A program made the translations under genes and the position numbers. Below, in pieces: positions 50,254-62,324 of a stretch of DNA of 64,000 bases. Each line of letters starts with the position of its first letter. The first letter of the stretch is position 1. The DNA is taken from the NCBI GenBank assembly GCA_040402835.1, contig JBBALW010000004.1; one strand, 5' to 3'. The DNA is from Flavobacterium sp. (GTDB lineage: Bacteria; Bacteroidota; Bacteroidia; Flavobacteriales; Flavobacteriaceae). The notes beneath the pieces were generated by a model that did not search any database, was not told the origin of the DNA, and saw only the letters and a list, made by a program, of their open reading frames with translations.

Positions 50254-50268
50254 TAACTACACATATAA

Positions 50269-51084
50269 ATGAAATTACTAAAAATAAAGCCTTCCAAAAG
50301 TTTAAACAAAGCGTATTACAAGCAATCACTAACGCGTGAACAAATTGAACTTTTCAAAAAAGAACTGCAAAACACGTTTCATCATATTGATGAAAAGCAA
50401 GACGAAGAATACCATAAAAATGTTATTGCCGACTTGTTTAAAAACGTGTATTGCAAAGACAAATACCTTGTAAACGTTAATAAAAAAGAAGATTTAGTAA
50501 TACGTTTAGGAAACAATACAACTGATGATGTTGGTGTTTTATTAGAGTTTAAAAAACCAAAAGAAACTAGAGATATGGTTTCGGCAGAAAATGCCAATGT
50601 AAAAGCATTGCAAGAAACGGTTTTATATTATTTGCGCCAAACCGTTGATAATGATAATCATAAAATAACCAATCTTGTGGTTACCAATATCTATGAGTGG
50701 TTTGTTTTTGATGGCGTTTGGTTTGAAAAAAACATTTTTAGAAACGCTAAACTCAAAAAAGACTATTTAGCTTTCAAAACTTCGGGACACGATACTAAAT
50801 ATTTTTATGATACTATTGCGGCTAAATACCTAGCAGAATTTACAGAAGAAGTCCCTTGCACTTATTTTAATCTATTAGATTATAAAGATAAAATCACCAA
50901 CGACAATCCAAATGACGATGACGATTTAATTGACTTATACAAAATTCTTTCGCCAGAACATTTGTTAAGCAAAAAGTTTGTAAACGACAGCAATTCCTTA
51001 AATACCGATTTTTATAACGAATTACTTTATATTATTGGTCTTGAAGAAAGCAAAGACACCGCCAAAAAACCATTCGTAGAATAA
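50269..51084 (+). CDS. type IIG restriction-modification enzyme, fragment 1/3 (N-terminal PD-(D/E)xK-like nuclease region); frameshifted
   Basis: 271 aa. Candidate nuclease motif ..KEDLVIRL...VLLEFKKP. Ends in the A6 run at 51064..51069; the next frame continues ..IRRINEAERNEGSLIEN.. without a break. Confidence 0.7.
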   Translation: MKLLKIKPSKSLNKAYYKQSLTREQIELFKKELQNTFHHIDEKQDEEYHKNVIADLFKNVYCKDKYLVNVNKKEDLVIRLGNNTTDDVGVLLEFKKPKETRDMVSAENANVKALQETVLYYLRQTVDNDNHKITNLVVTNIYEWFVFDGVWFEKNIFRNAKLKKDYLAFKTSGHDTKYFYDTIAAKYLAEFTEEVPCTYFNLLDYKDKITNDNPNDDDDLIDLYKILSPEHLLSKKFVNDSNSLNTDFYNELLYIIGLEESKDTAKKPFVE

Positions 51085-51197
51085 ATGAAGCCGAACGCAA
51101 CGAAGGTTCGCTTATTGAAAACACGATTTCGAAACTTAAAACAAAAAAATATTTTGGGTATGAAAACAATGAGGCAACCGAAAATCAATATTACGAA

Positions 51198-52211
51198 GTG
51201 GCACTGGAACTGTGCATTACTTGGTTAAATAGAATTTTATTTCTTAAACTTTTAGAATCTCAATTAATAAAATACCATCGTGGCGACAAGGAAAATTATT
51301 CTTTTTTAACGAGTTCAAAAATTAAAGAATTTGATGATCTCGAAGAATTATTTTTTGAAGTCTTGGCAGAAAAAATTGCCGACAGAAAATCTTCCGTTGC
51401 AACTAAATACGCAGCCATTCCTTATCTAAACAGTTCGTTGTTTGAAATGACCGATTTGGAAAAAAACGCTTTGTCTTTGAGTAATTTAAAAGACCGATTA
51501 GAGTTTCCGGTTTATAAAAAATCAGTTTTAAAGAAAGGTACAAAAGACGCAATCAAACCTAAAACCAGTTTAAACTATCTTTTAGATTTTCTTGATGCCT
51601 ATAATTTTGCCAGCGAAAGCAATGCCAAAATTCAAGAAGAAAACAAATCTATCATTAACGCATCGGTTCTTGGATTGATATTCGAAAAAATTAACGGTTA
51701 TAAAGACGGTTCGTTTTTTACACCAGGTTTTATTACGATGTACATGTGTCGCGAAACCATTCGCAAAGCGGTTGTGGAAAAGTTCAAAACCAATTTTCCG
51801 TATTGTCAAGATATTACAGACTATGAAGAATTAAAAGACAAAATAGATTACACCAATAAAGCTCAACGACTTGAAGCTAACAAGCTCATAAACGACATAA
51901 AAATTGTAGATCCAGCCTTAGGTTCGGGACACTTTTTGGTTTCGGCACTTAATGAAATGATTGCTATTAAAAGCGATTTGCAAATTCTTTCTTATACCAA
52001 TGGCAATCGTGTTTTGGGTTACACCATAACGCTTGATAACGACGAATTGATAATTCAAAATCAGGAAACCGACAAGCTTTTTGAATACACATTAAATCAA
52101 AACAATAAAATCATACCCGACTTGCAAGATTTGCAAGAATGTTTGTTTACAGAAAAGCAAACCATTATAGAAAACTGCCTTTTTGGTGTGGATATTAACA
52201 AAAATTCGTAA
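51198..52211 (+). CDS. type IIG restriction-modification enzyme, fragment 2/3 (helical linker + start of N6-adenine methyltransferase domain)
   Basis: The frame is already open from about 51060. SAM-binding motif I-like ..IVDPALGSGHFLV.., ..LFGVDINKNS then a stop. The track start is GTG. Confidence 0.7.
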   Translation: MALELCITWLNRILFLKLLESQLIKYHRGDKENYSFLTSSKIKEFDDLEELFFEVLAEKIADRKSSVATKYAAIPYLNSSLFEMTDLEKNALSLSNLKDRLEFPVYKKSVLKKGTKDAIKPKTSLNYLLDFLDAYNFASESNAKIQEENKSIINASVLGLIFEKINGYKDGSFFTPGFITMYMCRETIRKAVVEKFKTNFPYCQDITDYEELKDKIDYTNKAQRLEANKLINDIKIVDPALGSGHFLVSALNEMIAIKSDLQILSYTNGNRVLGYTITLDNDELIIQNQETDKLFEYTLNQNNKIIPDLQDLQECLFTEKQTIIENCLFGVDINKNS

Positions 52212-53971
52212 TGATTTGCCAATTGCGTTTGTGGATTGAATTATTAAAAAATGCTTACTACGTCACTGCGAGGAACGAAGCAGTCTCAACGAAAGATTGC
52301 GTCGTTCCTCGCAATGACGGTCTTCAACTTCAAACCTTACCTAATATTGACATCAATATTAAAACTGGAAACTCATTAATCTCAAAATTTGCTATCAAAG
52401 ACAATGTTTTTGAGCGCATTACTGGTTTTCAGAAGAAATTACAAGAATACAAAAATTGGGTACATATTTATAAAAACACGAACGACAAGAAAGCCAAAAA
52501 CGTTTTAAAAAATAATTTAAAACTCTTTAAAGACGAATTTAAATTGGCCGATTTGCGGGTAACCAAGTTGCAAAACGACCTGCGAAAATTGAACGGTGAA
52601 TTTTACGATAAATACCAAACGCACCAGTTTTTTACTAGTGAATTAACTGATAAAGAACAGAAAGCCAAAGAAAAACTAGAAGCAGCAATTAACGACAAAC
52701 AAGTAGAACTACAAACCGTAAAAGACAACCCCATTTATGAAAATGCGTTTGAATGGCGGTTTGAATTTCCAGAAGTTTTAGACGATAAAGGAGGTTTTGT
52801 TGGTTTTGATGTAGTGATTGGAAATCCGCCGTATGGAGTTGCTTTAAGCAATTCTGAAAGAACAGAAATCGGTAAAGTTTTGGGTAAAGTTCCAGATTTT
52901 GAGATTTATTATTTTTTCATAAATCTATCTAAAAATTTATTGTGCAAAAACGGTTTAAAATCGTATATCATACCAAACACAATCTTATTTAATGTGTTTG
53001 CAAAAACTTTTAGAGAAACATTATTTGATAAATGGCAAATTAATTCAATTTTAGATTGTACAAATTTCCCAATTTTTGATGGCGCAACGGTGCGATGTAT
53101 TTTAACTCAATTCCAAAATAAAGCATCTTTAGATATAATAAATTATAAGCCAACTGCTGATGCTAAAACTTTTGAAGAATTAATAGAAAGAAAAACAGAA
53201 AACGTTTCTAAAAAACAATTATTAGAAAACAATCAAAATTGGGGATTGGTTTTTAAATTATTTTCTGAAACTTTAAATATTATTTCAAAATTAAAAATTA
53301 AAAAAAATACTCTTTCGTATTATTTTCCTTATTTTACACAAGGTATAATAGCTTATGATAAATATAGAGGGCAAGACGAATTTACTATTAAAAATCGTAT
53401 TTATCATTCTAATGATTCTACTTTAGGATGGAAAAAATGGCTTTGGGGTGAAGATATTAATCCATATTCAGTAAAATGGAATGCAAAAGAATTTATAAAT
53501 TATGACGCAAATATAGCCAATCCTAGAGACCCAAAGTATTTCATCGGAGAACGTATATTAATAAGAGAAATCACTAATCCTAAAATTTTTGCTGGATTTA
53601 CAAATGAAGAAAGCTACAATGACCCTTCAATTATAAATATTTTAAAAAATGAAAAAGGTGAAATAAATATTAAATCTTTGCTAGCTATCATTAACTCAAA
53701 ACTAGCAACATTTTATCATTTTAATTCATCGCCAAAAGCAACAAAAGGAGCATTTCCAAAAATATTAATAGAAGATATTAAAAACTTTCCAATTCCAAAA
53801 ATTGACAAATCAAATCAAGACAAATTAACAAATCTCGTCGACCAAATTCTAACCTTAAAAAAAGAAAATCCCAAAGCTGATACAAGTGATTTAGAAAACG
53901 AGATAGACGAATTGGTTTATCAATTGTATGCGTTAACACCAGAGGATATTGAGGTGGTGAAGGGGAGTTAA
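52211..53971 (+). CDS. type IIG restriction-modification enzyme, fragment 3/3 (methyltransferase catalytic motif + target-recognition domain)
   Basis: 586 aa. ..ICQLRLWIELLKNAYY.., catalytic VVIGNPPYGV (NPPY), long C-terminal TRD-like region. Carries an in-frame palindromic insert at 52261..52319. Confidence 0.75.
   Translation: MICQLRLWIELLKNAYYVTARNEAVSTKDCVVPRNDGLQLQTLPNIDINIKTGNSLISKFAIKDNVFERITGFQKKLQEYKNWVHIYKNTNDKKAKNVLKNNLKLFKDEFKLADLRVTKLQNDLRKLNGEFYDKYQTHQFFTSELTDKEQKAKEKLEAAINDKQVELQTVKDNPIYENAFEWRFEFPEVLDDKGGFVGFDVVIGNPPYGVALSNSERTEIGKVLGKVPDFEIYYFFINLSKNLLCKNGLKSYIIPNTILFNVFAKTFRETLFDKWQINSILDCTNFPIFDGATVRCILTQFQNKASLDIINYKPTADAKTFEELIERKTENVSKKQLLENNQNWGLVFKLFSETLNIISKLKIKKNTLSYYFPYFTQGIIAYDKYRGQDEFTIKNRIYHSNDSTLGWKKWLWGEDINPYSVKWNAKEFINYDANIANPRDPKYFIGERILIREITNPKIFAGFTNEESYNDPSIINILKNEKGEINIKSLLAIINSKLATFYHFNSSPKATKGAFPKILIEDIKNFPIPKIDKSNQDKLTNLVDQILTLKKENPKADTSDLENEIDELVYQLYALTPEDIEVVKGS
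52261..52319. repeat. palindromic (hairpin) repeat element inserted in frame in the methyltransferase
   Basis: Arms CGTCACTGCGAGGAACGAAGCAGTCT and AGATTGCGTCGTTCCTCGCAATGACG (23/26 complementary) with loop CAACGAA. Translated as ..VTARNEAVSTKDCVVPRNDG... Confidence 0.8.
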
Positions 53972-53979
53972 AACAAAAA

Positions 53980-53999
53980 AAGCCACTCGAAAGTGGCTT
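53980..53999. terminator. bidirectional terminator between the RM gene and the STAS-like gene
   Basis: AAGCCACT-cgaa-AGTGGCTT flanked by an A-run and a T-rich stretch, between convergent genes. Confidence 0.75.
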
Positions 54000-54019
54000 T
54001 AAATTTTTATTTTTAGATA

Positions 54020-54289
54020 TTACATTGCAGAAATAATAACTCGTTGTACAAAATCGTTGGTGTTTAAGAAAGCAATTTTTGATTTAAAAACATCTAACGT
54101 TACGATGTCTTTTAGTTTGCTGAAACATTCGTTTGCAAATGAGTTCGTAACTACATCAACACCCTCAAAATCTAAATATACTTTATCGTTGGTATTGATT
54201 TTTTCAATAATATCCAAACGTATTTTAGCCCCTAAATCTCGAGTACCAAGACTTGGGTTTATTTCTCTAAATAGGATTGTGTGTGTCAT
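54020..54289 (-). CDS. small STAS-like domain protein (DUF4325-type)
   Basis: 89 aa from the ATG (MTHTILFREINPSLGTRDLG...). The track gives a TTG start at 54310. ..KVYLDFEGVDVVTNSFANECF.. matches the DUF4325/STAS-like pattern (xDFxGV..x.SF.dE.F). Confidence 0.65.
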   Translation of the reverse strand: MTHTILFREINPSLGTRDLGAKIRLDIIEKINTNDKVYLDFEGVDVVTNSFANECFSKLKDIVTLDVFKSKIAFLNTNDFVQRVIISAM

Positions 54290-54307
54290 TTCGTTTATAT
54301 TATAGTG

Positions 54308-54315
54308 CAAAGTTA
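54308..54315 (-). promoter_or_regulatory. candidate Bacteroidota -7 promoter box (TAACTTTG) for the STAS-like gene
   Basis: Fits TAnnTTTG and lies 18 nt upstream of the ATG at 54289. Confidence 0.35.
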
Positions 54316-54372
54316 TTATTAAATGGTTGATAAATAACGTAATATTTTGTTATTTATTTTTATTTTTTTAAA

Positions 54373-55272
54373 TCATTCAAATAAATTTTCAAAAACCTGC
54401 TTTTTGTAATCATAAAAAGGGCTTGTAAATTCAGTGTAATCAACAGAAACATTAGTGTTTATTCTTATATATACACAAGTGCCTTGCCATCCATCAATAT
54501 TTTTTACAATGGTGCCTTTTTCACTAACATTTAGTTTTTTGTTTCCCGAAAACAAACTCAGCCAACCTTTGTTTAATCTAACAAACGATGCTGTTGCAAA
54601 TAATCCATGACCTTGTCCTTTTCCATTGGTAACGCCGCTTTCAATACATTTTGAAATCGCTTCTTCTTCGGTAAAACTAAATTTTTGATTTAATGAAGCG
54701 TGAATTCCCATTCCAAAATCACAAACAATTAATCGAATTGAATTTATGTTTTCAAAATATTGTGCTACAACCCAACCAACTTTTTCATCTGTGTGATTTA
54801 ATACATTATCCAGAATTTCATTGAAACAATAATCTAAACTTGCATAAACATTATCATCTAAAGAACTTTTTTCTTTTAGCACTTTTAAAATGCTATTTAA
54901 TACCTCTGTCTGATTTTCGGATGTGTATTTTTGTATTTGTACAGAATTATGGGGGTTAATTTTCGGAATTGAAATAGGCAATTCTACATTTAGATTTTCA
55001 AAGAAATTCATTTTTGCCAAGTAGCTAACTATTTCTGTATTAGTATCTAATTTAATTGTGCCTTTCACCTCAATTCCTAAATTCTCAATATGTTTTATTG
55101 AGCAAAGTAATAAAATAGCATAATCTGGATATATAAAGTTACAATCAGAGAAATCAATAATTATTTGGGTGTTTGGTTCGGCTTTATATTGGTTAACCAA
55201 TGCTTTACAAACAGCAATTGTTTGCGTATGTGATTTAGAAATGTCCTTAATTAATAGTGTATATGTTTGCAT
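54373..55272 (-). CDS. GHKL/HATPase_c ATP-binding protein (SpoIIAB/RsbW-like kinase fold) with N-terminal STAS-like region
   Basis: 299 aa. N-box ..CFNEILDNVLNH.., G1 ..VCDFGMGI.., G2 ..NGKGQGHGLF... The first ~100 aa (..QIIIDFSDCNFIYPDYAILLLCSI..) look like a STAS/anti-sigma-antagonist-type fold. Confidence 0.65.
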   Translation of the reverse strand: MQTYTLLIKDISKSHTQTIAVCKALVNQYKAEPNTQIIIDFSDCNFIYPDYAILLLCSIKHIENLGIEVKGTIKLDTNTEIVSYLAKMNFFENLNVELPISIPKINPHNSVQIQKYTSENQTEVLNSILKVLKEKSSLDDNVYASLDYCFNEILDNVLNHTDEKVGWVVAQYFENINSIRLIVCDFGMGIHASLNQKFSFTEEEAISKCIESGVTNGKGQGHGLFATASFVRLNKGWLSLFSGNKKLNVSEKGTIVKNIDGWQGTCVYIRINTNVSVDYTEFTSPFYDYKKQVFENLFE

Positions 55273-55289
55273 GGCATTTATTTGTTAAT

Positions 55290-55297
55290 CAAAAATA
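55290..55297 (-). promoter_or_regulatory. candidate -7 promoter box (TATTTTTG) for the GHKL-ATPase/STAS operon
   Basis: Fits TAnnTTTG and lies 17 nt upstream of the ATG at 55272. Confidence 0.35.
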
Positions 55298-55330
55298 GAC
55301 AATTAATTTAAACAATAATTTATTTGATGA

Positions 55331-55378
55331 ATTTCTTTTGAATTGGAGAAAATGCAAGTGAATTGCAAACTGAATTAA
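55331..55378 (+). pseudogene. displaced remnant of the dnaE 3' end (last ~14 codons plus stop)
   Basis: 55337..55378 reads FELEKMQVNCKLN*; the dnaE C-terminus at 50212..50253 reads FELEKMQVDFRLN*. 33/42 nt are identical and 5 of the 9 differences are synonymous. Confidence 0.8.
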
Positions 55379-55390
55379 TTCCATAAATCC

Positions 55391-55474
55391 CTAGCCCTGA
55401 TGGAAGGGAAAATCCTTTTTTATTGTGAGGCACGAACAATAACAAAGATTGGAATGACTGCAGGATAAAGCTCC
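55391..55474 (+). repeat. intergenic repeat family member (CTAGCCCTGATGGAAGGG...GCAGGATAAAGCTCC)
   Basis: Same termini as 35774..35840. Internal palindrome TTATTGT-GAGGCACGA-ACAATAA. Confidence 0.6.
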
Positions 55475-55543
55475 AAAAGAAATAAATACCGGTTAATAAA
55501 TTATCACAATACCTTTATAATCAAAACTAATTTCGGAATTGTG

Positions 55544-55571
55544 TTGGAATGGTTTTTAATTGTTAAATTTG
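55544..55571 (+). promoter_or_regulatory. candidate trxA promoter (TTG ... TAAATTTG)
   Basis: TTG at 55544..55546 and TAAATTTG at 55564..55571 (TAnnTTTG), about 33 nt upstream of the ATG. Confidence 0.4.
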
Positions 55572-55604
55572 CCGTACATAAAACTAAATTAATAAATATA
55601 AAAT

Positions 55605-57054: not shown

Positions 57055-57116
57055 CACTCGCTAATAAAGTTTTCTAGTACTCTAGAAAATCAACTTTAGC
57101 GAAACAATAAAGCGCT

Positions 57117-57190
57117 GGTTTGGTAGTTCAGTTGGTTAGAATACATGCCTGTCACGCATGGGGTCGCGGGTTCGAGTCCCGTCCAGACCG
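57117..57190 (+). tRNA. tRNA-Asp (anticodon GTC)
   Basis: Acceptor stem GGTTTGG/CCAGACC, anticodon stem-loop CATGC-CTGTCAC-GCATG, T-arm GCGGGTTCGAGTCCCGT. No encoded CCA. Confidence 0.93.
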
Positions 57191-57217
57191 CTTGTTCCGA
57201 TAGCTATCGGAAGGGAG

Positions 57218-57245
57218 AAGCACTTCAGAAATGAAGTGCTTTTTT
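57218..57245 (+). terminator. rho-independent terminator after tRNA-Asp
   Basis: AAGCACTTCA-gaaa-TGAAGTGCTT followed by a T-run. Confidence 0.8.
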
Positions 57246-57303
57246 GCCCCAAAAAAGGTTTTTAAGACTGTTGTGTTGTTTTGCTACGACTTTGTAACTC
57301 GTA

Positions 57304-57370
57304 GCCGGTTTAGTAGTTAGACCAATGAAAAGCTTTCTCGTTTTATAACGAGATGGCTTTTTTGATTTAT
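57304..57370 (+). repeat. left flanking repeat of the GIY-YIG gene
   Basis: Blocks GCCGGTTTAGTAGT, ATGAAAAGCTTTC, a small hairpin, and GCTTTTTTGATTTATA. The same blocks recur at 57627..57724. Confidence 0.7.
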
Positions 57371-57381
57371 ACCTAAAAAAT

Positions 57382-57621
57382 ATGTTTTATATTTATATAT
57401 TATTCTCAAAATCTAGCAATATATATTATAAAGGGTTTACAGAGAATTTAAAAAAAAGAGTGGAAAATCATCTTGCGGGACGAAGTAAATATACTTCAAC
57501 CAAAAATGATTGGGTACTAGTTTATTCTAAAGAATTCGAAATTAAAAAAGAAGCTTTAATAGAAGAGAAAAGATTAAAAAAACTAAACAGAGCTTCCCTT
57601 GAGAAATTAATTTACAATTAA
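57382..57621 (+). CDS. small GIY-YIG nuclease-family protein
   Basis: 79 aa. FYIYILFS..SNIYYKGFTENLKKRVENH.. carries the GIY...YIG/R/E core. Confidence 0.85.
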   Translation: MFYIYILFSKSSNIYYKGFTENLKKRVENHLAGRSKYTSTKNDWVLVYSKEFEIKKEALIEEKRLKKLNRASLEKLIYN

Positions 57622-58163: not shown

Positions 58164-59195
58164 ATGTCAAATATTTCAAAACACTCAGAATCAACTCCCC
58201 CTTCGGGGGTTTGGGGGGCAATCAATAAACGAATTCTTATTCTCGACGGAGCAATGGGAACCATGTTGCAACGCTATAATTTCTCGGAAGAAGATTTCCG
58301 AGGTGAGCGTTTCGCAACTTTTCCCTATTCCCTAAAAGGAAACAACGATTTACTTTCGTTAACACAACCAAATGCAATTCGAGATATTCACGCACAATAT
58401 TTAGAAGCAGGTGCCGATATTGTAGAAACTAACACCTTCTCAGGAACAACAATAGGAATGGCAGATTATCATCTCGAAGACATTGTTTACGAACTTAACT
58501 TTGAATCTGCCAAAATTGCACGCGAAGTAGCCCATGAATTCACAGCAAAAAATCCTGAAAAACCCCGTTTTGTTGCGGGTTCAATAGGGCCAACAAACAG
58601 AACCGCAAGCATGTCGCCCGATGTAAACGACCCAGGCTTCAGAGCCGTATCATTCGACGATTTACGAATTGCTTATAAACAACAAGTCGAAGCCCTTATT
58701 GATGGTGGCGTAGATTTGCTTTTAGTGGAAACCATTTTCGATACTCTAAATGCCAAAGCAGCACTTTTCGCCATAGAAGAAGTCAAAGACGAACGCAAAA
58801 TCGACATTCCAATTATGGTTTCTGGAACCATTACCGATGCTTCTGGAAGAACACTTTCCGGGCAAACCGTAGAAGCTTTTTTAATTTCAATTTCACATAT
58901 TCCATTGTTGAGCGTAGGTTTCAATTGTGCTTTGGGAGCACACCAACTGAAACCGTATTTGAAACAATTGGCACACAATACATCTTTCAATATTTCGGCA
59001 CATCCTAATGCAGGATTGCCAAACGCTTTCGGGCAATACGACGAAACGCCCAAAGAAATGCAAGCGCAAATCAAAGAATATTTAGACGAAAATTTAATCA
59101 ATATTATTGGAGGATGTTGCGGAACAAATCCAGACCACATTCGATTAATTGCTGAAGTGGCGAAGGATTATAAACCAAGAAAAGTTGTCGGTTGA
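58164..59195 (+). CDS. homocysteine S-methyltransferase domain protein (N-terminal module of split methionine synthase)
   Basis: 343 aa. ..ILILDGAMGTMLQ.., ..VETNTF.., ..GFNCALG.., ..IGGCCGT (Zn/Hcy-binding cysteines). Confidence 0.9.
   Translation: MSNISKHSESTPPSGVWGAINKRILILDGAMGTMLQRYNFSEEDFRGERFATFPYSLKGNNDLLSLTQPNAIRDIHAQYLEAGADIVETNTFSGTTIGMADYHLEDIVYELNFESAKIAREVAHEFTAKNPEKPRFVAGSIGPTNRTASMSPDVNDPGFRAVSFDDLRIAYKQQVEALIDGGVDLLLVETIFDTLNAKAALFAIEEVKDERKIDIPIMVSGTITDASGRTLSGQTVEAFLISISHIPLLSVGFNCALGAHQLKPYLKQLAHNTSFNISAHPNAGLPNAFGQYDETPKEMQAQIKEYLDENLINIIGGCCGTNPDHIRLIAEVAKDYKPRKVVG
58196..58219. repeat. solo arm of the GC-rich hairpin element family, inside the annotated 5' end of the gene
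   Basis: TCCCCCTTCGGGGGTTTGGGGGGC, compared with the arm TTCCCCCTTCGGGGGTTAGGGGGCT at 62470..62494. Translated as ..PPSGVWGA... Confidence 0.7.
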
Positions 59196-59663
59196 TAGTT
59201 GATGGTTCTTGGGAAATCCATCCAATAAAAATTAATTTATCAATTTACAAAAATCAACAATAAATATGGAATACAATAAACTTGAAGTTTGGATTGAAGC
59301 AAGAAAATTGACAAATTTAATTTACGATTTATCTAAAGTTTTTCCAAAAGAAGAGATTTACGGATTGACAAATCAAATGAGAAGATGTTCGGTTTCAATT
59401 CCTTCCAATATTGCGGAAGGTTGCGGAAGACAAACTTCAAAAGATACAATTAATTTTTTGCACATATCAAGAGGCTCATTATATGAATTAGAAACACAAT
59501 GTTATGTAGCTCTTGACCAAAAATATATTGACGAGAATAATTTTAATATTGTTTTTAACCAGATGCAATCTTGTAAAAAACTATTAAATGGATTTATAAA
59601 TTATTATAAAAAGTTGTTATGATTATAGATACGGCCAACAACCAACAACCAACAACCAACAAC
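59190..59663 (+). mobile_element. four-helix-bundle ORF cassette bounded by heptad-type inverted repeats
   Basis: Left arm GGTTGATAGTTGATGGTT (59190..59207) can pair at 15/18 positions with AACCAACAACCAACAACC inside the right arm (59635..59663). It encloses the ORF at 59266..59622. Confidence 0.55.
59266..59622 (+). CDS. four-helix-bundle protein (23S rRNA intervening-sequence protein / Avd-like family)
   Basis: 118 aa. ..[71 protein letters not shown] is the classic family signature. Confidence 0.85.
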
Positions 59664-62324
59664 TATTTAAAGTTATCAGGACTTGAACCACTAATAGTGA
59701 CTCCAGAAACCAACTTCGTAAACGTTGGTGAACGAACTAATGTAACCGGTTCCCGAAAATTTTTGCGTCTTATAAAAGAGGAAAAATACGCCGAAGCACT
59801 TGCTGTGGCTCGTGACCAAGTAGAAGGTGGCGCACAAATCATCGATATTAATATGGATGAAGGAATGCTTGATGGCGTTTATGCAATGACCACTTTCCTA
59901 AATTTAATTGCTTCCGAACCGGATATTTCTCGTGTTCCTTTGATGATTGACAGTTCAAAATGGGAAATTATCGAAGCCGGTTTGAAAGTGGCTCAAGGAA
60001 AAAGTGTGGTGAATTCAATTTCTCTAAAAGAAGGGGAAGAACAATTTATTCATCATGCCAAATTAGTAAAACGATACGGAGCGGCTGTAATCATTATGGC
60101 ATTTGATGAAAAAGGACAAGCCGATAATTACGAACGACGAATCGAAATTTGCAAACGCTCGTACGATATTTTAGTTGACGTAGTTGGTTTTCCGGCTCAA
60201 GATATTATTTTCGATCCTAATATTTTCCCAGTTGCCACAGGAATGGACGAACATAAATTGAATGCTTTAGATTTCTTTCGAGCCACAAAATGGATTAAAG
60301 AAAATCTTCCACACGCCCATGTAAGCGGTGGCGTGAGTAACGTTTCGTTCTCTTTTAGAGGAAATGATACGGTGCGAGAAGCAATGCATTCCGCATTTTT
60401 GTATCACGCTATCCAAAACGGAATGACAATGGGAATTGTAAATCCCGAGATGTTATCTATATATGATGAAATCCCAAAAGATTTATTGGAACACGTTGAA
60501 GATGTTTTATTAAACAGAAGGGACGATGCAACCGAACGATTATTAGACTTCGCTGAAAATGTAAAAGGCGATTTTAAAGTAAATGAAAAGGCAATCCAAG
60601 AATGGCGTTCTGGTAAAATCCAAGAACGATTAACGCATTCTTTGGTAAGAGGAATTGATGAATTTATAGAATTAGACATAGAAGAAGCAAGACTTGCAGC
60701 TTCAAAACCAATCGAAGTTATCGAGATTAATTTGATGACAGGAATGAATGTTGTAGGTGATTTATTTGGGAGTGGAAAAATGTTTTTGCCACAAGTAGTT
60801 AAATCGGCACGAGTTATGAAAAAAGCCGTGGCTTATTTACTTCCATTTATTGAAGCGAGCAAACAGGTTGGTGACAAACAAGGGGCTGGCCGCATTTTGA
60901 TGGCAACCGTAAAAGGTGATGTCCATGATATTGGGAAAAATATTGTTTCCGTGGTTTTGGCTTGTAATAACTATGAAATCATTGATTTAGGTGTAATGGT
61001 TGCACCCGAAAAAATTATTGCAGCAGCTATTGAACATAATGTCGATGTTATTGGTTTAAGTGGATTAATCACGCCTTCATTAGATGAAATGGTTTATTTG
61101 GCTAAAGAATTAGAAAGGTTAAATATTAAAATTCCAATAATGATTGGTGGCGCAACCACTTCTCGTGCACATACCGCAGTGAAAATTGCGCCACAATATA
61201 ACAGCACTGTAGTTCACGTGAATGACGCTTCGAGAGCGGTAACAGTTGCGGGAAATTTATTGAATACCGAAACAAAATTAAAATACACAACTGATATTCG
61301 ATTAGAATATGACGAATTGCGTGAAGGATATTTGAACCGAAGTCGCGACAAAAATTTCTTGACAATTGAACAGGCTCGTGCCAATAAATTAAAATTAGAT
61401 TGGGATAATTTCACACCTGTAAAACCAAATTTTATTGGTTCAAAAACCATAGAAGTTGATTTGGATGTTTTAGTTCAGTATATCGATTGGACACCATTTT
61501 TTAGAACTTGGGAATTGTTTGGAAAATATCCAGCGATTTTAACAGATGAAGTGGTTGGCGAACAAGCAACTTCAGTTTTTGCTGATGCTCAAGAAATGTT
61601 GAAAGTAATTATCAAAGAAAAGAAATTAACTGCTAAAGGAATTTATGGAATATTTCCAGCGAATCAAGTTAACGATGATGATATTTTGGTTCAACCAACC
61701 AACAACCAACAACCAGCAACATTTTTAACTTTGCGTCAGCAATCTCAAAAAACGGCAGGCGCACCAAACATAGCTTTAGCCGATTTTATTGCACCTAAAG
61801 ACAGTGGGAAAACTGATTATATGGGTGCATTTTGTGTAACCACTGGTTTTGGTGTTGACGAATGGGCAACTGAATTTGAGAAGAATTTAGACGACTACAA
61901 TTCGATTATGGTGAAAGCTTTGGCAGACCGATTTGCGGAAGCATTCGCCGAATATTTACACGAAAAAGTACGTAAAGAAATTTGGGGTTATGCAACTGAT
62001 GAGGTTTTAACTACTGAAGAATTAATTGGCGAAAGCTACAAAGGAATTCGTCCAGCGCCAGGGTATCCAGCATGTCCAGACCATTTAGAAAAGCCAACGA
62101 TTTGGAAATTATTAAATGTAGAACAAGAAATTGGAGTAAAATTAACTGAAAGTATGGCAATGTGGCCTGCGTCATCGGTTTCAGGATATTATTTTGGAAA
62201 CCCAGAAAGTAAGTATTTTGGGCTTGGGAAAATAAAAGAAGACCAAGTAATTGATTACGCAAAACGCAGAAGCATACCAACGGAAGTTGCCAATAAATGG
62301 TTGAATCCAAACATAGCAGAGTAA
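59619..62324 (+). CDS. metH: methionine synthase (pterin-binding, B12-binding and AdoMet-activation modules)
   Basis: 901 aa. ..[11 protein letters not shown].., B12 motif ..[11 protein letters not shown].., ..[12 protein letters not shown]... ATGA overlap with the preceding ORF. Confidence 0.93.

Follow-up and report, generated by a model that had tools for sequence, protein, structure and literature searches.

The K–S module and its two proteins

We analyzed computationally a two-gene module in a 64,000-nucleotide (nt) stretch of the Flavobacterium sp. contig JBBALW010000004.1 (the window), where a gene for a 299-residue protein with a GHKL-type ATP-binding domain, here called K, is followed on the same strand by a gene for a small STAS-like protein, here called S (coordinates in Table 1). 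An earlier, sequence-only reading of the locus had credited K with a GHKL ATP-binding set, and this is borne out by sequence and fold alike. Across 37 homologues (32 to 87% identity) the motif residues are invariant—E152, D155 and N156 in the N-box, D185, G187 and G189 in G1, and G217, G219, G221, G223 and L224 in G2—with H160 of the N-box kept in at least 90% of the sequences, and the AlphaFold2 model of K (pLDDT 88.4, pTM 0.88) retrieves only GHKL/Bergerat proteins when compared with the PDB by Foldseek. The top whole-length structural match is LvrC, which combines a receiver with an anti-σ domain, and SpoIIAB (1tid chain C) is matched with a TMt of 0.64. The Pfam model HATPase_c (PF02518) gives K an E value of 1.8e-5 and 25.6 bits, slightly below its gathering score of 26.4, and the match to HATPase_c_2 is weak; a precomputed PF02518 match is present in most K homologues. 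No NCBIfam model matched K or S, and single-sequence PDB searches with either protein returned only noise, so that family profiles were required.

The first 100 or so residues of K had been read as STAS-like, and three lines of evidence agree with this. Residues 1 to 100 have a β-α-β-α-β-α topology in the AlphaFold2 model, Foldseek pairs the model with a viral DUF4325 protein (probability 0.96 over 112 columns), and the N termini of K homologues from a Deinococcus plasmid and from Marinitoga phage MPV1 score above the Pfam STAS cut-off. A profile-profile comparison of this domain with S in hhalign is not significant (probability 7%, E = 0.005), so the assignment is based on the topology, on transitive homology and on a single Foldseek match. 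In that nonsignificant alignment the two proteins are nonetheless in register, with DF..FIYPDY of K opposite DF..VVTNSF of S, and D50 of K, invariant among its homologues, occupies the phosphoserine-equivalent position, matching the invariant S50 of S. The STAS domain of K is thus not phosphorylatable at this site, and D50 may, judging from the alignment, mimic the phosphorylated state. Next to D50, P49 is nearly to fully invariant, Y48 is nearly invariant, and F46 is conserved in at least 90% of homologues. Pfam gave no helix-turn-helix (HTH) match for K, which opens with a STAS-like β-strand at residue 3.

The assignment of S to DUF4325 proved sound. The Pfam model (PF14213, "STAS-like") matches it at E = 2.9e-13 and 49.8 bits against a cut-off of 23, the AlphaFold2 model reaches a pLDDT of 95, and the top PDB folds are all STAS domains (RsbS, stressosome, SLC26 STAS, YchM and SpoIIAA; TM scores of 0.58 to 0.65, with weak E values). 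Within the S family alignment the motif NSF..E is invariant, Ser50 included, and residue 48 is nearly always Thr or Ser; Ser50 opens STAS helix 2, where the phospho-acceptor usually sits. The protein ends straight after the last STAS helix, no winged HTH (wHTH) domain was found on it by Pfam or in the model, which shows a single STAS domain, and PADLOC holds no model matching it. S begins with the ATG at 54289 and so has the same length, 89 residues, as nearly all homologues, which makes the spacer between K and S 83 nt and not the 62 nt given earlier. A TTG at 54310, which would yield 96 residues, was rejected as the start of S, as it sits within the TAACTTTG box and homologues have 89 residues.

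The sequence-only reading had also noted one TAnnTTTG box per gene. Both are present, TATTTTTG before K and TAACTTTG before S, and would represent −7 elements of the Bacteroidota type; a scan with the σ70 consensus is uninformative for Bacteroidota. The TATTTTTG box falls within the stretch that the window shares with a second Flavobacterium-type locus (L014). At the other end of the module, a bidirectional terminator separates the stop codon of S from that of a convergent restriction-modification (RM) gene and marks the 3′ edge of the module, and in four different contexts the homology stops at 53969-53972. The window matches five Flavobacterium-type loci, situated in different contexts, at the DNA level only over approximately 53969-55323, and the transferable unit, which comprises promoter, K, S and terminator, therefore measures about 1.3 kb. 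No convincing terminal repeats, direct or inverted, were found around it. Upstream of it, the spacer between the K promoter and trxA (55324-55579) is about 160 nt longer than in a locus with the same flanking genes (L016), and a GC-richer segment at 55389-55415 occurs once in the window.

Pairing, selection and genomic contexts

Scanning one genome per species yielded 250 relatives, from which 80 loci were fetched; three of these are uninformative, with K at a contig end. In all 77 informative Bacteroidota loci a DUF4325 gene follows K immediately downstream on the same strand. This pairing is far above chance, and the two genes are strictly co-conserved. K measures about 300 residues in Flavobacteriia and about 217 in Bacteroidales, where the N-terminal domain is missing and the two genes usually overlap by a few bases. 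In five of the 77 loci, all from Bacteroidales, K and S are fused into one open reading frame (ORF); fusions account for 7 of 144 family representatives, and fused forms from metagenomes have 316 to 425 residues. The ratio of nonsynonymous to synonymous substitutions (dN/dS) against close orthologues is 0.04 to 0.06 for K and 0.05 to 0.08 for S, and purifying selection on both genes is strong. When flanking ORFs were clustered all against all, no third gene conserved across independent loci emerged. The family is large, with sequence clusters in the thousands: a profile search against 1.84 billion representatives (a 50%-identity library) yielded 5,944 matches at E ≤ 1e-3 and 2,417 at E ≤ 1e-10, mostly of about 300 residues.

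The pair was found on many kinds of carriers, some of them from other phyla, in agreement with its earlier description as cargo of an inserted islet, and it sometimes sits beside defense genes. In Flagellimonas it lies in an integrative element (ICE) together with TraG, a DUF5712 protein, RadC, SSB and an integrase, and in three further loci (L011:5843-7150, also L012 and L013) a pair with 37% identity is inserted antisense, moron-like, among phage tail genes (tape-measure-like PhageMin_Tail, DUF6046 and Gp58-like). By tblastn, pairs were located in the lysogeny module of Marinitoga phage MPV1, beside paratox at the end of Streptococcus agalactiae prophages, in Clostridioides, Coprococcus and Ralstonia phages, and on Pseudomonas, Alicyclobacillus, Hymenobacter, Acinetobacter and Nostoc plasmids. 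A scan of IMG/VR returned one locus only, so that in this collection the module is not mainly phage-borne, and many copies, that of the window included, are in chromosomal islets without mobile-element genes. The distribution is patchy, and insertion sites differ even between close relatives. One Flavobacterium-type pair (61% identity; L020, contig CALRVY020000163.1) lies on a contig binned as Pseudanabaena and has the same flanks as L021 to L023; this is probably a binning error rather than a transfer.

The neighbors of the pair are equally heterogeneous. Among 139 immediate neighbors no Pfam family occurs more than four times, and those represented include EF-G, thioredoxin, DNA polymerase III alpha and permeases. 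We sampled the association with defense genes by examining nine large neighbors individually, four of which are of defense type (an intact type IIG/ISP RM, PDC-S46, a GmrSD/HEC-06 enzyme and an HD-CE protein); the rest, PurL and a BspA leucine-rich-repeat protein among them, are of the housekeeping or surface type. The association with defense genes is therefore real but partial.

These contexts bear on the idea that the pair is a classical partner-switching module and housekeeping stress regulator, in which K would act as anti-σ factor for a σ factor encoded elsewhere and S as its antagonist. The resemblance is considerable: K combines an RsbW/SpoIIAB-like N-box (E..N...H) with a structure similar to SpoIIAB and LvrC, IMG labels homologues as anti-σ regulatory factors, and, as in SpoIIAB/SpoIIAA and RsbW/RsbV, an RsbW-type Bergerat kinase is accompanied by a single-domain STAS partner with a serine at helix 2, with structural matches to 1tid chains C and B. 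On an Alicyclobacillus plasmid (L100:79-1748), moreover, a 92-residue protein consisting of σ70 region 4 only is encoded directly upstream of the pair, the sole σ-like partner seen. In contrast to the known modules, however, the kinase carries a STAS-like domain of its own, and the module is mobile and patchily distributed, with differing insertion sites and with phages, an ICE and plasmids as carriers. The sequence-only reading saw no σ factor, PP2C phosphatase or effector domain nearby, and our Pfam and ORF survey likewise found none: σ factors and PP2C are absent from the surroundings of the pair in the window (dnaE, RM, trxA, DUF58, GIY-YIG and metH), and neither family recurs among the 139 flanking genes of the 80 loci. 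We therefore regard the partner-switching explanation as unlikely. LvrC from Leptospira (PDB 9qih) shares with K the order of an alpha/beta regulatory domain followed by an RsbW-like Bergerat domain, but its regulatory domain is a receiver with a phospho-Asp instead of a STAS domain, the TM score is 0.34, and it belongs to a two-component phosphorelay.

Relation to VapKSC and CapKS, and a possible mode of action

VapKSC and CapKS are switches in which a kinase activated by single-stranded DNA (ssDNA) acts on a STAS substrate (Chambers et al., EMBO J 2026, PMC13373217). CapK (HTH-STAS-GHKL) and CapS (STAS-wHTH) are transcriptional controllers of immune operons, immediately upstream of which they are located; once activated by ssDNA, CapK phosphorylates S54 of CapS, which then leaves the DNA (PMC13373217). 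VapKSC is a defense system of the toxin-antitoxin (TA) type, with a STAS-GHKL kinase (VapK), a STAS antitoxin (VapS) and a PIN toxin (VapC). VapS reaches and inhibits the active site of VapC through its C-terminal residues 94 to 116, and VapK is proposed to free VapC by phosphorylating S48 of VapS (PMC13373217). The ssDNA groove, as seen in an AlphaFold 3 model of CapK, combines an aromatic residue of the STAS domain (VapK F54, CapK W68) with basic residues of a GHKL hairpin (CapK K237/K239), and the VapK mutation F54A abolishes phage defense by VapKSC (PMC13373217). In both systems the K protein is the sensor and not the effector, and the kinase with its substrate can serve as a portable DNA-damage sensor that is coupled to a repressor domain or to a PIN toxin (PMC13373217).

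Our profile comparisons connect the K–S pair to these systems. Searched against the PDB, the S profile has a single significant match, Escherichia VapS (9z7o, E = 6.8e-7), and a profile comparison of S with VapS gives 32 bits. The K profile aligns with published VapK over residues 26 to 271 of K, across both domains, at 36.7 bits, with F46 and P49 of K opposite F54 and P57 of VapK, and with CapK at 28 bits over the YLxRxxFF linker, the N-box and G1. S50-F51..E54 of S is in register with S54-F55..E58 of CapS, in which S54 is experimentally phosphorylated. A complete set of the vapKSC type (STAS+HATPase, DUF4325 and PIN) was detected with K as an operon on a Deinococcus plasmid. Homology to VapK and VapS now supports the kinase/STAS-substrate reading first proposed by analogy, and sequence comparison leaves a kinase/substrate core common to K–S, VapKSC and CapKS well supported.

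The likeness extends to architecture. As in VapKSC, K consists of a STAS and a GHKL domain of together about 300 residues without an HTH, the kinase gene precedes the substrate gene, and STAS helix 2 begins with a conserved hydroxyl residue; as in CapKS, a GHKL kinase is followed by a STAS substrate, and K shares with CapK the YLxRxxFF motif, the N-box pattern E..N...H and G1. Yet features that define each system are missing. Downstream of S there is no vapC/PIN gene but a terminator and the convergent RM gene, and no PIN or VapC protein was found by phmmer among 9,193 ORFs of the window and 93 loci with VapC and Deinococcus PIN queries. S stops at residue 89, without the C-terminal helix of VapS, and this VapC-inhibiting tail is absent across the S family; the basic ssDNA loop is not conserved in K, and many K relatives have no STAS domain. 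Unlike CapK, K has no N-terminal HTH; S, having no wHTH, cannot be a CapS-like repressor, and no immune operon follows it, the downstream genes varying across loci. Lacking the tail, PIN, wHTH and HTH, as well as σ factor and PP2C, the pair is a member neither of VapKSC, nor of CapKS, nor of classical partner switching. The sequence-only reading had called the architecture undescribed, which is right in part: the kind, a STAS-GHKL kinase with a STAS substrate, is known since its publication in 2026, and what is new is the bare two-gene form without an effector, which is not described there.

It might be asked whether the bare pair is simply a decaying vapKSC that has lost its PIN toxin, as the homology to VapK and VapS in the absence of VapC would allow. 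We give this hardly any credence, for it is already contradicted by the dN/dS values and by the breadth of the distribution, with hundreds of bare pairs across orders in addition to the fusions; the catalytic motifs are invariant, and the tail that inhibits VapC is missing from S family-wide, not in single copies.

On balance, and with some reserve, we lean toward reading the pair as a self-mobile 1.3-kb phospho-switch of the VapK/VapS (CapK/CapS) type that has no effector of its own. K would be a GHKL serine kinase resembling RsbW and SpoIIAB, preceded in the same chain by a degenerate STAS domain, and S a minimal STAS protein. K would bind S and, upon a signal, use ATP to phosphorylate it where helix 2 begins, at the invariant Ser50 or at the neighboring Thr48. 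If CapK and VapK are a guide, this signal could be ssDNA lying in the STAS–GHKL interdomain groove, with F46 playing the part of VapK F54. Phosphorylation would then change the binding partners of S, or those of the freed K, and the output partner, which the module does not encode, would have to be either K itself or a protein of the host or of an invader that acts in trans. What we infer from this comparison is phosphotransfer to S50, ssDNA as the trigger and a part in conflicts with phages or other mobile genetic elements.

Several observations weigh against this phospho-switch model. The match between S and CapS falls short of statistical significance, and S48 of VapS aligns with N49 of S, one residue before S50. 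The basic ssDNA loop of CapK (K237/K239, by alignment K180/K181 in VapK) reads E174-N175-I176-N177 in K, although the family consensus of this hairpin has a lysine at 175. Since Bacteroidales K lacks the N-terminal domain altogether, ssDNA sensing may not be general, and the ssDNA trigger is accordingly uncertain for K: the aromatic F46 is conserved, but the basic hairpin and, in Bacteroidales, the STAS domain are not. Without a VapS-like C-terminal segment on S, the known output route is missing. Finally, defense genes are a minority among the neighbors of the pair, and the immediate ones are mostly unrelated or housekeeping genes.

A possible, if clearly less probable, alternative is that the pair is a self-contained TA or abortive-infection system, with K as an effector kinase acting on essential host or phage proteins and S as an antitoxin-like decoy or inhibitor that holds it until a trigger arrives. 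Two genes without a third partner that move as a unit would suit such a system, as would their location in moron and lysogeny regions of prophages, in an ICE and on plasmids beside TA genes; the K–S fusions are reminiscent of fused TA sensors, and the related VapKSC is itself a TA-type defense. On the other hand, the kinase-first order and the separate promoters are atypical of TA modules, and in both VapKSC and CapKS the K protein serves as sensor rather than effector. To our knowledge no GHKL kinase toxin exists, which also counts against this alternative. Its boldest form, which we consider unlikely, would make the bare pair a complete and widespread conflict system, with a GHKL kinase effector, a STAS pseudo-substrate as antitoxin, and nucleic acid or another sign of infection as trigger.

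Conversely, the pair could be counter-defense cargo that blunts immunity by mimicking the CapKS/VapKSC signaling of its host, for instance through S as decoy or K as rival kinase. Its presence in phage and ICE genomes of several phyla and its homology to components of immune switches would fit this role, but a simple decoy has no need of strict K–S pairing, a single match came from IMG/VR, and many copies, including the one studied here, reside in chromosomal islets devoid of mobile-element genes. We find the proposal quite unlikely.

The phospho-switch model presents the K–S pair as the sensor core of CapKS/VapKSC with nothing plugged in, which is nevertheless paired, conserved, fused and mobile. 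Identifying its output would reveal either a new effector logic, with the kinase as effector, or a target acting in trans that is common to many hosts, and would also give a role to a large share of the uncharacterized DUF4325 genes and adjacent "ATP-binding protein" genes in prophages, ICEs and plasmids. If true, the kinase-effector reading would describe the first system of a GHKL-kinase toxin and a STAS antitoxin.

A further profile match concerns DISARM. The one PADLOC model that matches K is that of a DrmA variant (PDLC02567), of which positions 57 to 278 (of 1,750) align with residues 65 to 279 of K (window 54436-55080) at E = 1.4e-18, a stronger match than any Pfam GHKL model gives. As the match is to the N-terminal positions of the model, some DrmA helicases apparently carry a K-like N-terminal (sensor) module. 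In contrast to DrmA, K has neither the helicase nor other DrmA domains, and there are no DISARM genes nearby.

The adjacent restriction-modification gene and other features of the window

Table 1. Features of the K–S module and its surroundings, with K–S fusions at other loci
Feature	Position	Strand	Remarks
K gene	54373..55272	−	299 residues, VapK-like; from ORF, Pfam HATPase_c, PADLOC DrmA N-terminal region, AlphaFold2 and GHKL fold matches
Domain order of K			STAS-like N-terminal domain, YLxxMNFF linker, RsbW/SpoIIAB-type GHKL domain
STAS-like N-terminal domain of K	54973..55272	−	residues ~1-100; from secondary structure, VapK alignment, Foldseek and relatives passing Pfam STAS
GHKL/Bergerat ATP-binding domain of K	54457..54915	−	residues ~120-272; from invariant motifs and fold matches
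N-box of K, EILDNVLNH	54793-54819	−	
G1 of K, DFGMG	54706-54720	−	
G2 of K, GKGQGHGL	54601-54624	−	
F46 codon of K	55135-55137	−	aligned with the ssDNA-stacking F54 of VapK
S gene	54020..54289	−	89 residues, single-domain STAS/DUF4325, VapS homologue
Ser50 codon of S	54140-54142	−	candidate phospho-acceptor, invariant; T/S48 adjacent
TATTTTTG box	55290-55297	−	TAnnTTTG, putative Bacteroidota-type −7 element, 18 nt upstream of the K start codon
TAACTTTG box	54308-54315	−	TAnnTTTG, putative promoter element in the K–S spacer, upstream of the S start at 54289
Bidirectional intrinsic terminator	53979..54000	both	9-bp stem, T runs on both strands; from terminator scan
Type IIG RM gene	50269..53971	+	DUF7149, DUF7814, MmeI_Mtase/Eco57I, TaqI_C; outside the module
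K–S fusions, Bacteroidales	L050:5764-6732, L065:640-1596, L066:10031-11002, L072:2792-3745, L082:9953-10903		~320 residues
K–S fusion, Nostoc plasmid	L097:1914-3158		414 residues

The type IIG RM gene next to the pair is split over three reading frames, the pieces of which are collinear on the PADLOC model REase_MTase_IIG (PDLC03612). The frameshifts fall at runs of A, at about 51063 (A6) and about 52200 (A5), and may mean that the gene is a pseudogene or phase-variable, or that the sequence contains errors. The stretch from dnaE to the pair (window 50254-53969) behaves as an exchange slot: at the same dnaE-trxA site in L016 it shrinks to the 56 nt that separate the pair from dnaE (L016:11307-11363), with the RM absent, and in L014 it is filled by a different, intact type IIG/ISP-like RM (L014:3198-6278; PDLC03621), which has only the final 88 nt in common with the cassette of the window. 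The window-type RM is also missing from the other contexts of the pair. Being absent in one locus, replaced in another and missing elsewhere, the RM gene is a cassette in its own right that can be exchanged, rather than a partner of K–S.

This argues against one of the roles that the sequence-only reading had offered for the pair, that of regulating the RM enzyme next door in the manner of CapKS, as a local controller of the adjacent gene. In its favor, capKS adjoins an RM system in 88 of 443 cases (PMC13373217), and an RM gene is adjacent both here and in L014. However, a DNA-binding domain is lacking in S, the RM gene has two frameshifts and converges on the pair across the terminator they share, it is absent from the syntenic L016 and from other contexts, and the 139 flanking genes are heterogeneous. 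We thus hold this role to be very unlikely.

Beyond trxA, the window shows some further peculiarities. A stand-alone ORF for a 79-residue GIY-YIG nuclease domain (57382-57621, plus strand) lies in an AT-rich intergenic stretch, near a sequence (57104-57371) that recurs in two unrelated loci, L015 and L017. The metH gene is split into a part encoding the homocysteine S-methyltransferase domain (58164-59195) and the remainder (59619-62324). Between the halves stands a gene on the plus strand (59266-59622) for a 23S rRNA-intervening-sequence protein, a four-helix bundle that is weakly bAvd-like, and the end of this gene overlaps the start of the second metH half by 4 nt.

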